In this document: one piece after another, positions 45,101 to 48,100 of the stretch | How the letters are laid out: each line of letters opens with the position of its first letter | Numbering within the stretch: position 1 is the first letter of the stretch | Origin: Escherichia coli O157:H7 | Lineage (GTDB): Bacteria > Pseudomonadota > Gammaproteobacteria > Enterobacterales > Enterobacteriaceae | Direction: 5' to 3' (one strand) | DNA: 64,000 bases | NCBI RefSeq assembly: GCF_013167455.1 | Contig: NZ_CP038328.1 | Position numbers: made by a program

Positions 45101-48100
45101 CAGAGAAGATACAAAAACAGGGAGGTGATTATTTATTCGCGGTAAAAGGAAACCAGGGGCGGCTAAATAAAGCCTTTGAGGAAAAATTTCCGCTGAAAGA
45201 ATTAAATAATCCAGAGCATGACAGTTACGCAATTAGTGAAAAGAGTCACGGCAGAGAAGAAATCCGTCTTCATATTGTTTGCGATGTCCCTGATGAACTT
45301 ATTGATTTCACGTTTGAATGGAAAGGGCTGAAGAAATTATGCGTGGCAGTCTCCTTTCGGTCGATAATAGCAGAACAGCAGAACAGCAGAACAGCAGAAC
45401 AGCAGAACAGCAGAACAGCAGAACAGCAGAACAGCAGAACAAAAGAAAGAGCCAAAAAATGACGGTCAGATATTATATCAGTTCTGCTGATTTAACCGCA
45501 GAGAAGTTCGCCACAGCAATCCGAAACCACTGGCACGTGGAGAATAAGCTGCACTGGCGTCTGGACGTGGTAATGAATGAAGACGACTGCAAAATAAGAA
45601 GAGGAAATGCAGCAGAATTATTTTCAGGGATACGGCACATTGCTATTAATATTTTGACGAATGATAAGGTATTCAAGGCAGGGTTAAGACGTAAGATGCG
45701 AAAAGCAGCCATGGACAGAAACTATCTGGCGTCAGTCCTTGCGGGGAGCGGGCTTTCGTAATCTTGCCCTGGCATTATTGTCGTAAAAACGCTTTACCGG
45801 ACACACGACATTCACAATGTGTGTTAATTTTACTGACATCTTTCAAAAGGAGCGTAATCATGCCGCACATAGACATTAAATGTTTTCCGCGTGAACTGGA
45901 CGAACAACAAAAAGCAGCACTTGCTGCAGATATTACCGACGTTATTATTCGCCATCTGAACAGTAAAGACAGTTCGATAAGCATTGCTCTACAACAGATT
46001 CAACCAGAATCTTGGCAAGCTATCTGGGATGCCGAAATCGCGCCCCAAATGGAGGCTTTGATAAAGAAACCCGGTTACAGCATGTAATGCTTAACCCGCC
46101 GTAACACGCTTGCCGCTGGTAACAAACGTCCCAGCACCTAAATGATGCAACGTATTGAGCTTATCATCATCAAACTGCCAGCGGCCTTCGACAAATACCC
46201 GTGCGTCTGCCGCTGCTGATACTACTTCGCCAAACAGCGTGTCGTATTCTTCTTGCGCAGAAGTCGCAGGTAGCAATCGACACTCCATCCACGCCAGACA
46301 TTTTTCCTCGACCAGAGGCAAACCAAATACCGGGCCTCTCACAACCGGAATGCCATAGCAATTAAATTTATCTTCTTCACGACCCGACACACTTCCCACT
46401 GCCCACGTCCAGTTAGTTGCTGCAACGCCCGGGATAACGATGCCAAATTTACCGTTACGTTCAATCAACTCCCTGGTCCATGTCGATTTATCTACCACAA
46501 TCGTCACGCGTGGAGGTTCAAACTCCACCGGCATTGATCAGGCTGCAGCCATAATGTTACGCCGCTGGGATTGCTCATCGAAACTGGTGATCATGACAGT
46601 TGGGCCATGATTTAACAGCCGGCTGGCATGGTGTAATTCTATGGGGATGAATCGGCTCATGGTATCGCCTCGCGAAGAAGGTTTTTTTAAGCGTAGTCCG
46701 TAACGCAATAAGTAACGAAATTAACGGGATTGGCGATTTGCGAACGTGATGCATGTCCGCGATCGCACAAAATAGCCGGTGCGGCGTCTATTCCAGGTTA
46801 TAAGTTGAGAAAACCACTAAGGGAAACGCCTGATGACGCCCATTCTGAATCACTATTTTGCCCGTATTAACTGGTCGGGAGCTGCTGCGGTCAATATTGA
46901 TACGCTTCGTGCATTGCACCTGAAACACAATTGCACCATTCCGTTTGAAAACCTCGACGTTTTGCTGCCGAGGGAAATGCAGCTTGATGATCAATCGCTG
47001 GAAGAGAAACTGGTGATAGCCCGTCGTGGCGGTTACTGTTTTGAGCAGAATGGCGTTTTTGAGCGGGTGTTACGCGAGCTGGGGTTTAACGTTCGCAGCT
47101 TGTTAGGGCGGGTAGTGTTATCAAATCCGCCAGCATTACCGCCGCGCACCCATCGTTTGCTGTTGGTGGAACTGGAAGAGGAAAAATGGATTGCTGATGT
47201 CGGTTTCGGTGGGCAGACGCTAACCGCGCCGATTCGTTTAGTTCCCGATCTTGTGCAGACCACGCCACACGGAGAGTATCGGTTGTTGCAGGAGGGTGAT
47301 GATTGGGTGTTGCAGTTTAATCATCATCAGCACTGGCAGTCGATGTACCGTTTTGATCTCTGCGAGCAGCAACAAAGCGATTATGTGATGGGTAATTTCT
47401 GGTCGGCGCACTGGCCGCAGTCGCATTTTCGCCATCATTTGCTGATGTGCCGCCATTTGCCGGACGGCGGCAAGCTGACACTGACCAATTTTCATTTTCC
47501 CATTATGAAAATGGGCACGCGGTGGAGCAGCGAAATCTACCGGATGTGGCGTCGTTATATGCTGTGATGCAAGAACAGTTTGGTCTGGGCGTGGATGATG
47601 CGAAACATGGCTTTACCGTGGATGAGTTAGCGCTGGTGATGGCGGCGTTTGATACGCACCCGGAGGCGGGAAAATAATTTATGTCAGGTTGCCGGATGCG
47701 GCGTAAACGCCTTATCCGGCATACATTAGCCCGGTTGTAGACCTGACAGGCGAAGCGCATCAGGCAACGGTTTCAGAGTTTAATTGCCCATTCGGCATGA
47801 AACAAAATCACCGCCGCGCCAGAAATGGTGACTTTTTCCGGTTGGTTATCACGAATTGTCACCGTCACTTCAATCATACCGTCACGCCCCAATGCGCGCC
47901 CCTGATGGCCTTTAACACGCAACACGTTGCCATCGTGGGGCAATACGTTGTGATGTACCAACCATGCACCCATCGGGCCATTGGCATTGCCAGTCACCGG
48001 ATCTTCCACAATACCAATCGCAGGCGAGAACATGCGACCATCGGTTTCGTTTTTGCCTGGGCGGATCTGGAACGGGAAGAAACCATTGCAGCCAATCTGT

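Follow-up and report, generated by a model that had tools for sequence, protein, structure and literature searches.

Does a tandem repeat inside a transposase gene switch that gene on and off, did its growth inactivate the gene, or does it change length freely in a gene that was already dead? The question is raised by a 64,000-nucleotide stretch of Escherichia coli O157:H7 DNA (contig NZ_CP038328.1 of assembly GCF_013167455.1; hereafter the window), in which nine perfect head-to-tail copies of the octamer AGCAGAAC lie on the plus strand at 45369..45440, within the ydcC gene. Because the unit is 8 bp long, every gain or loss of a copy changes the reading frame, and the original prediction had offered two readings of this arrangement: a slipped-strand on/off switch, or a replication-slippage expansion that killed the element. 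The evidence presented here favours a third. The array is very probably a neutral variable-number tandem repeat (VNTR), an octanucleotide microsatellite, that drifts by slipped-strand mispairing in an already dead ydcC. Since no allele encodes a complete transposase, changes in copy number are without functional consequence.

A perfect octamer array in a transposase pseudogene

The host gene, ydcC (44560..45761, plus strand), is an ISAs1-family (H-repeat (H-rpt)/ISEc1-like) transposase pseudogene, as annotated by the Prokaryotic Genome Annotation Pipeline (PGAP) on an identical record: over the 1.3 kb queried (44500..45800), the window matches E. coli O157:H7 strain 9234 (GCF_001753525.1), which came from cattle hide in Texas, at 100% identity. 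In that record ydcC is labelled ‘ISAs1 family transposase; frameshifted; internal stop’. An intact homologue (378 amino acids, 97% DNA identity) harbors the Pfam domains DDE_Tnp_1_assoc (residues 8–94, E = 1.6e-33) and DDE_Tnp_1 (residues 102–343, E = 6.5e-28), the combination found in ISAs1-family transposases; the annotated name and the domains of the homologue thus agree with the earlier assignment of the gene to the H-rpt elements. It is not part of an active element, as it has a nonsense codon, 1 nt inserted in the right flank and the array frameshift. In a scan of 44380..45860 for inverted repeats, no convincing terminal pair emerged that could represent the ends of an insertion sequence (IS).

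Tandem Repeats Finder (TRF) reports the array at 45369..45441, with period 8, 9.1 copies, 100% matches, no indels and a score of 146, and ranks it as the top-scoring tandem repeat of the whole window. A regular-expression count gives exactly nine units at 45369..45440 and no array of two or more AGCAGAAC units elsewhere in the 64 kb, so that both the unit and its predicted coordinates hold to the nucleotide; alignments and the population survey described below agree. The chance that a first octamer is followed by eight more exact copies is ~4^-64 per site. The array falls at ydcC codons ~270–272 (IIAEQ), within the catalytic domain. Short, high-identity units arranged head to tail are characteristic of VNTRs and microsatellites, and an intragenic position combined with a unit length that is not divisible by three is also characteristic of contingency genes.

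Array length sets the reading frame

When the gene was rebuilt in silico with 0–15 units, only 2, 5, 8, 11 and 14 units fused its two parts, which includes the three values (2, 5 and 8) named in the original prediction. In the nine-copy allele of the window, the upstream frame (open reading frame (ORF) 44839..45462) terminates at a TGA at 45460..45462 on the plus strand, exactly where it had been placed. The C-terminal part that begins with MTVRYY (45459..45761, plus strand) and forms the end of the DDE domain lies in a different frame (ORF 45318..45761). By likeness to IS4-like DDE transposases, the segment downstream of the array would hold a putative catalytic Glu motif.

The set of in-frame copy numbers is 2, 5, 8 instead of 1, 4, 7 because the right flank contains one additional nucleotide: alignments reveal that the O157 flank, GAGCCAAAAAATG, which includes a run of six adenines (A6; 45454..45459, plus strand), is 1 nt longer than the corresponding GAGACAGAAATG or GAGCTCGAAATG of intact copies. 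In other E. coli H-rpt copies the homologous span measures 166–167 nt, compared with 231 nt in the window, which corresponds to one unit each; the statement that the intact protein has a single octamer here is therefore borne out. So is the expectation of a gene about 65 nt too long: ydcC measures 1202 nt in the window and 1137 nt in intact copies, and the 65 extra nucleotides comprise 64 nt of added units and the single base in the right flank. Differences in array length also account for the two kinds of PGAP label on ydcC in O157 genomes, some of which have it as ‘frameshifted’ and others with ‘internal stop’ alone.

Copy number differs among closely related genomes

Copy number was surveyed in 5426 complete E. 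coli genomes with a query composed of 60 nt of left flank, 20 synthetic units and 60 nt of right flank, at E ≤ 1e-28; a native nine-copy query could not resolve alleles, as its BLAST match breaks into two pieces, each near-perfect. At this threshold only arrays of about two or more units pass, rank rises with copy number, and the number of units equals (span − 120)/8. An expanded array was found in 305 genomes, at one place in each. All matches listed are annotated as ydcC or as an ISAs1 transposase, and belong to O157:H7, O55:H7 or strains of no stated serotype. Exact counts from the 60 top-ranked matches give a single genome with 9 units (strain 9234), 13 genomes with 8 and 35 with 7, whereas the remaining classes were estimated from 60 evenly spaced matches, at ~56 genomes with 6 units, ~81 with 5, ~112 with 4 (including EDL933 and O55:H7 DEC5A) and ~5 with 3 or fewer. 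The seven alleles observed (2 and 4–9 units) form a unimodal spectrum (4 > 5 > 6 > 7 > 8 > 9), and these counts and estimates together correspond to an allele diversity (1 − Σp²) of ~0.75 across the 305 genomes.

Flanking sequence is conserved. Strains 9234, EC4115, EDL933, CV261 and DEC5A, with 9, 5, 4, 2 and 4 units, respectively, otherwise differ by 0–1 substitutions over ~1.15 kb, and as judged from this alignment no other site of the gene comes near the array in mutability; it is the sole hypervariable site. Whole-unit differences among related strains with conserved flanks are what is expected of a VNTR, and so is a spectrum compatible with stepwise slippage: besides being unimodal, it places sister isolates at 7, 8 and 9 units. 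In the cattle-hide study that yielded 9234, the sister isolates 2159, 2149 and 4276 have 8 units and isolate 1130 has 7, which puts the 9-unit allele just one step higher. Variation is also present inside O55:H7, where DEC5B has 6 units and DEC5A has 4; the array therefore predates the split between O55 and O157. The heterogeneity across strains that the original prediction had called for is thus present, spanning 2–9 units, and its proposals that the array arose by slippage-type expansion and that copy number determines frame are upheld.

The same data bear on whether the array is real. That 9 units occur in only one record is what an artefact of sequencing or assembly, through repeat collapse or expansion, might produce. 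However, at 72 nt the array is below the length of any read type, and independent complete assemblies differ by whole units, with clones in agreement internally: 22 near-identical cattle isolates (strains 113–141) all have 7 units, four Okinawa isolates all have 8, and the separate assemblies of EDL933 and ATCC 43894 have 4 each. The 9-unit record is, moreover, only one step from its sisters. An artefactual origin is unlikely, and the probability we would assign to it is close to nil.

Constancy in the 22 and 4 clonal isolates argues against a high switching rate, and at the resolution of genome comparison the array displays no short-time-scale instability.

The array is confined to one copy of the element. 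No second arrayed H-rpt copy passed the cut-off in any genome, and in strain 9234, which has five H-rpt places, only one is arrayed; the comparison with other H-rpt copies that had been proposed finds the array at one place per genome. A scan for (AGCAGAAC)x3 in one genome per species found no array of 3 or more units in Enterobacteriaceae. It did find 49 loci with 3–23 units in unrelated phyla, none of them near an ISAs1 transposase. There is thus no sign of an octamer hotspot shared within the ISAs1 family, and from this distribution the O157 array appears as an isolated, lineage-specific event. Some of the distant genomes contain several such loci (Bryocella elongata 8, a Planctomycetota metagenome-assembled genome 5, Viridilinea 3), and octamer arrays in unrelated phyla commonly have degenerate units (AGCGGAAC, CGCAGAAC) beside them and are frequently located at contig ends.

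A nonsense codon at every array length

An ORF scan and alignments revealed an in-frame TGA at codon 60 (44737..44739, plus strand), inside the N-terminal DDE_Tnp_1_assoc domain, where K-12 ydcC has CAA (Gln). This codon had been overlooked in the earlier reading of the sequence. It remains in the rebuilt gene at all copy numbers from 0 to 15, and it is present in 9234 (9 units), EC4115 (5), EDL933 (4), CV261 (2) and O55:H7 DEC5A (4). Natural alleles with 5 and 2 units, in which the two gene parts are in frame, still have the PGAP label of a pseudogene with ‘internal stop’. No copy number gives an intact gene, since all O157 and O55 copies examined have TGA as codon 60.

This observation is central to the first of the two readings proposed earlier, that of a contingency switch in which copy number would turn production of a functional H-rpt transposase on and off. 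The repeat itself has the right form for such a switch: its unit length is no multiple of three, natural alleles occur in all three frames, and 2, 5 or 8 units fuse the gene halves. Contingency genes, however, have an intact, functional ORF at some repeat number, and in ydcC the codon-60 TGA is found in every allele examined, the in-frame ones included. Nor is there a sign of selection on frame or function, as the in-frame alleles (2, 5 and 8 units) make up ~32% of the 305 genomes, compared with the approximately one-third expected in the absence of selection on frame. The 22 clonal isolates show no change in copy number. Furthermore, the array is situated in the middle of the catalytic domain and not near the 5′ end of the gene, and in-frame alleles insert 3–19 foreign residues into the DDE domain. 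On this evidence the on/off switch does not stand, and we regard it as highly improbable.

The stop codon most likely preceded the expansion

The second reading, in which growth of the octamer array inactivated an element that had been intact until then, draws on the fact that the 9-unit allele shifts the 3′ third of the gene, encoding the last part of the DDE domain, out of frame. It can be examined through the distribution of the other lesions. A 61-nt query centred on the TGA (44708..44768) has a perfect match in 1049 of the 5426 complete E. coli genomes, as opposed to the 305 that have an expanded array. Carriers of this 61-mer include O111, O9:H10 and O22:H8 strains, single-octamer copies in unrelated serotypes, and copies at the yhhI locus. 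An H-rpt in strain DETEC-S565 is 98.2% identical to the copy in the window and, although located at a different Rhs locus, lies behind the same dsORF-e4 and IS1 remnant; it has a single octamer, yet both the TGA and a +1 flank (GAGCCAGAAATTG) are already there.

The codon-60 TGA is thus most likely older than the array, judging from its wider spread, and the 1-nt frameshift probably also arose before the expansion. Given that the TGA is more widespread and is already found in a relative with one octamer and identical upstream context, the expansion was not what killed the element; this part of the original prediction is not upheld, and we consider it very unlikely that the array was the inactivating lesion.

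As a separate observation, the dead, TGA-bearing H-rpt lineage is widespread at the ydcC and yhhI loci, presumably through Rhs-associated recombination and not through transposition.

The events would then have followed one another in four steps. A nonsense mutation at codon 60 would have come first, followed by the 1-nt insertion in the right flank, of which the single-octamer relative has a slightly different form. The lone AGCAGAAC would next have been duplicated in the common ancestor of O55:H7 and O157:H7, and gains and losses of whole units would have led to the present 2 to 9 copies; the spectrum is observed, and its origin in single-unit steps is the likely route to it. We also considered whether the first 8-nt duplication compensated for the +1 flank (8 + 1 = 9 nt, in frame). 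This candidate was rejected, since a 1-in-3 coincidence would look the same and the older TGA makes the question moot.

An unlikely residual function and limits of the neutral reading

Two further alternatives invoke a protein that starts downstream of codon 60. In the first, translation would restart at the ATG at 44839; where the array has 3, 6 or 9 units, ribosomes slipping by −1 on the A6 run just ahead of the TGA at 45460 would enter the C-terminal frame, so that a truncated DDE protein would be made in amounts dependent on array length. The region 45454..45462 does read GCC AAA AAA TGA, and a −1 slip would yield ...KERAKK-MTVRYY... in frame, with KERAKKMTVRYY as the predicted junction. 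The arguments against this recoding are that it relies on geometry alone, that its product would be without DDE_Tnp_1_assoc (residues 8–94), that nothing in the population survey suggests conservation or selection, and that the A6 run belongs to the lineage-specific frameshift and is not conserved in intact copies. The geometry is probably coincidental, and the probability of residual function by recoding is vanishingly small. In the second, broader alternative, the array would act as a contingency switch for such a truncated protein, made from ATG 44839 in frame with 2, 5 or 8 units or through the −1 slip at 3, 6 or 9. This is exceedingly unlikely; if true, a transposase remnant in the O157:H7 lineage would have taken on a role both new and variable.

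Several points count against the interpretation of the array as a neutral VNTR in a dead gene. The classes of 6 units and below are estimates from evenly spaced matches and not counts. The genomes are phylogenetically non-independent, which makes the one-third-in-frame figure a weak test of neutrality. The evidence on variation and slippage comes from the comparison of complete genomes between strains. Among the 305 genomes, the TGA was checked directly in six aligned or annotated genomes with an expanded array and in the O157/O55 records among the matches listed for the 61-nt query. Finally, on sequence alone an N-terminally truncated product from ATG 44839 is conceivable.

Comparison with known repeats and elements

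The closest parallels to a neutral octamer repeat in ydcC are the loci used for multilocus VNTR analysis (MLVA) of O157:H7 (Vhec, TR and O157-n), with which the array shares short, perfect head-to-tail units, whole-unit polymorphism among close O157:H7 and O55:H7 strains, and conserved flanks. It differs from them in its 8-bp unit, its low copy number (2–9) and its location in a pseudogene. VNTRs of O157 are generally attributed to slipped-strand mispairing (PMC3777172), and the nine O157 MLVA loci studied in that work have units of 6, 7 or 18 bp (PMC3777172); because its unit is 8 bp, the ydcC array is not one of those nine. Full-text literature searching, which did not cover the larger O157 VNTR catalogues, found no prior description of the ydcC octamer locus.

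With phase-variable contingency genes of the type found in Haemophilus, Neisseria and Campylobacter, the array has in common an intragenic, non-triplet and hence frame-shifting repeat. By contrast, ydcC is without an intact ORF at any repeat number and without a sign of selection on frame, it is stable in clones, and it encodes a decayed IS transposase, whereas their host genes are surface or restriction-modification genes. Another tandem duplication is known from O157:H7: in tssM, a 28-bp duplication arose once, is fixed and has a demonstrated phenotype (PMC12981562). Both are gene-disrupting tandem duplications specific to the O55:H7-to-O157:H7 lineage; unlike that of tssM, the array in ydcC exists as several alleles and is expected to have no effect.

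The H-rpt/ISEc1 elements of K-12 (ydcC, yhhI and ybfL/ybfD) are 97–98% identical at the DNA level and have the same domain architecture, and K-12 ydcC is the same gene at the same site, beside rhsE and pptA. What sets the O157 copy apart are the nonsense codon, the 1-nt insertion and the array; K-12 and most other H-rpt copies have one octamer.

The biological weight of the locus is small. It provides an example of a tandem repeat that arises and drifts freely in a dead gene, with the lesson that a frame-shifting repeat alone is no proof of phase variation and that the rest of the ORF needs to be checked. A possible use is as an additional, low-rate marker for in-silico typing, given seven alleles, the diversity reported above and stability within clones.

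The rhsE locus and neighbouring genes

In the window, the rhsE locus comprises a gene for an RHS core protein (39444..43646), small ORFs downstream of it, a 99-nt IS1 remnant, ydcC, pptA, yddH and nhoA. The IS1 transposase remnant lies upstream of ydcC in the region of ~44074..44218, and is directly followed by a 13-nt tandem repeat of 3.2 copies (44179..44218); the same remnant also precedes H-rpt copies at other Rhs loci of unrelated strains. In O55:H7 DEC5A, a truncated RHS core gene abuts a ydcC that is without its first 18 nt, and the downstream ORFs and the IS1 remnant of O157:H7 are absent.

Decay also extends to two genes nearby. The flavin reductase gene yddH (46091..46660, minus strand) has a stop codon at 46538 in place of W41 (TGG to TGA) relative to O55:H7 DEC5A; the remaining ORF of 147 amino acids (46091..46534) is annotated by PGAP as an intact gene. 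With a length of 845 nt, nhoA (46833..47677) is frameshifted, and it is a PGAP pseudogene in O157:H7 and intact in O55:H7 DEC5A. Three genes of this neighbourhood, ydcC, yddH and nhoA, are thus all decayed in O157:H7. In EDL933 (CP008957), where the array is located at about 2,043,856–2,044,007, ydcC has an extra 1-nt deletion in its 3′ part, equivalent to window position 45511, which is absent from 9234, EC4115 and CV261, and in the PGAP annotation of EDL933 the gene is divided between two features.
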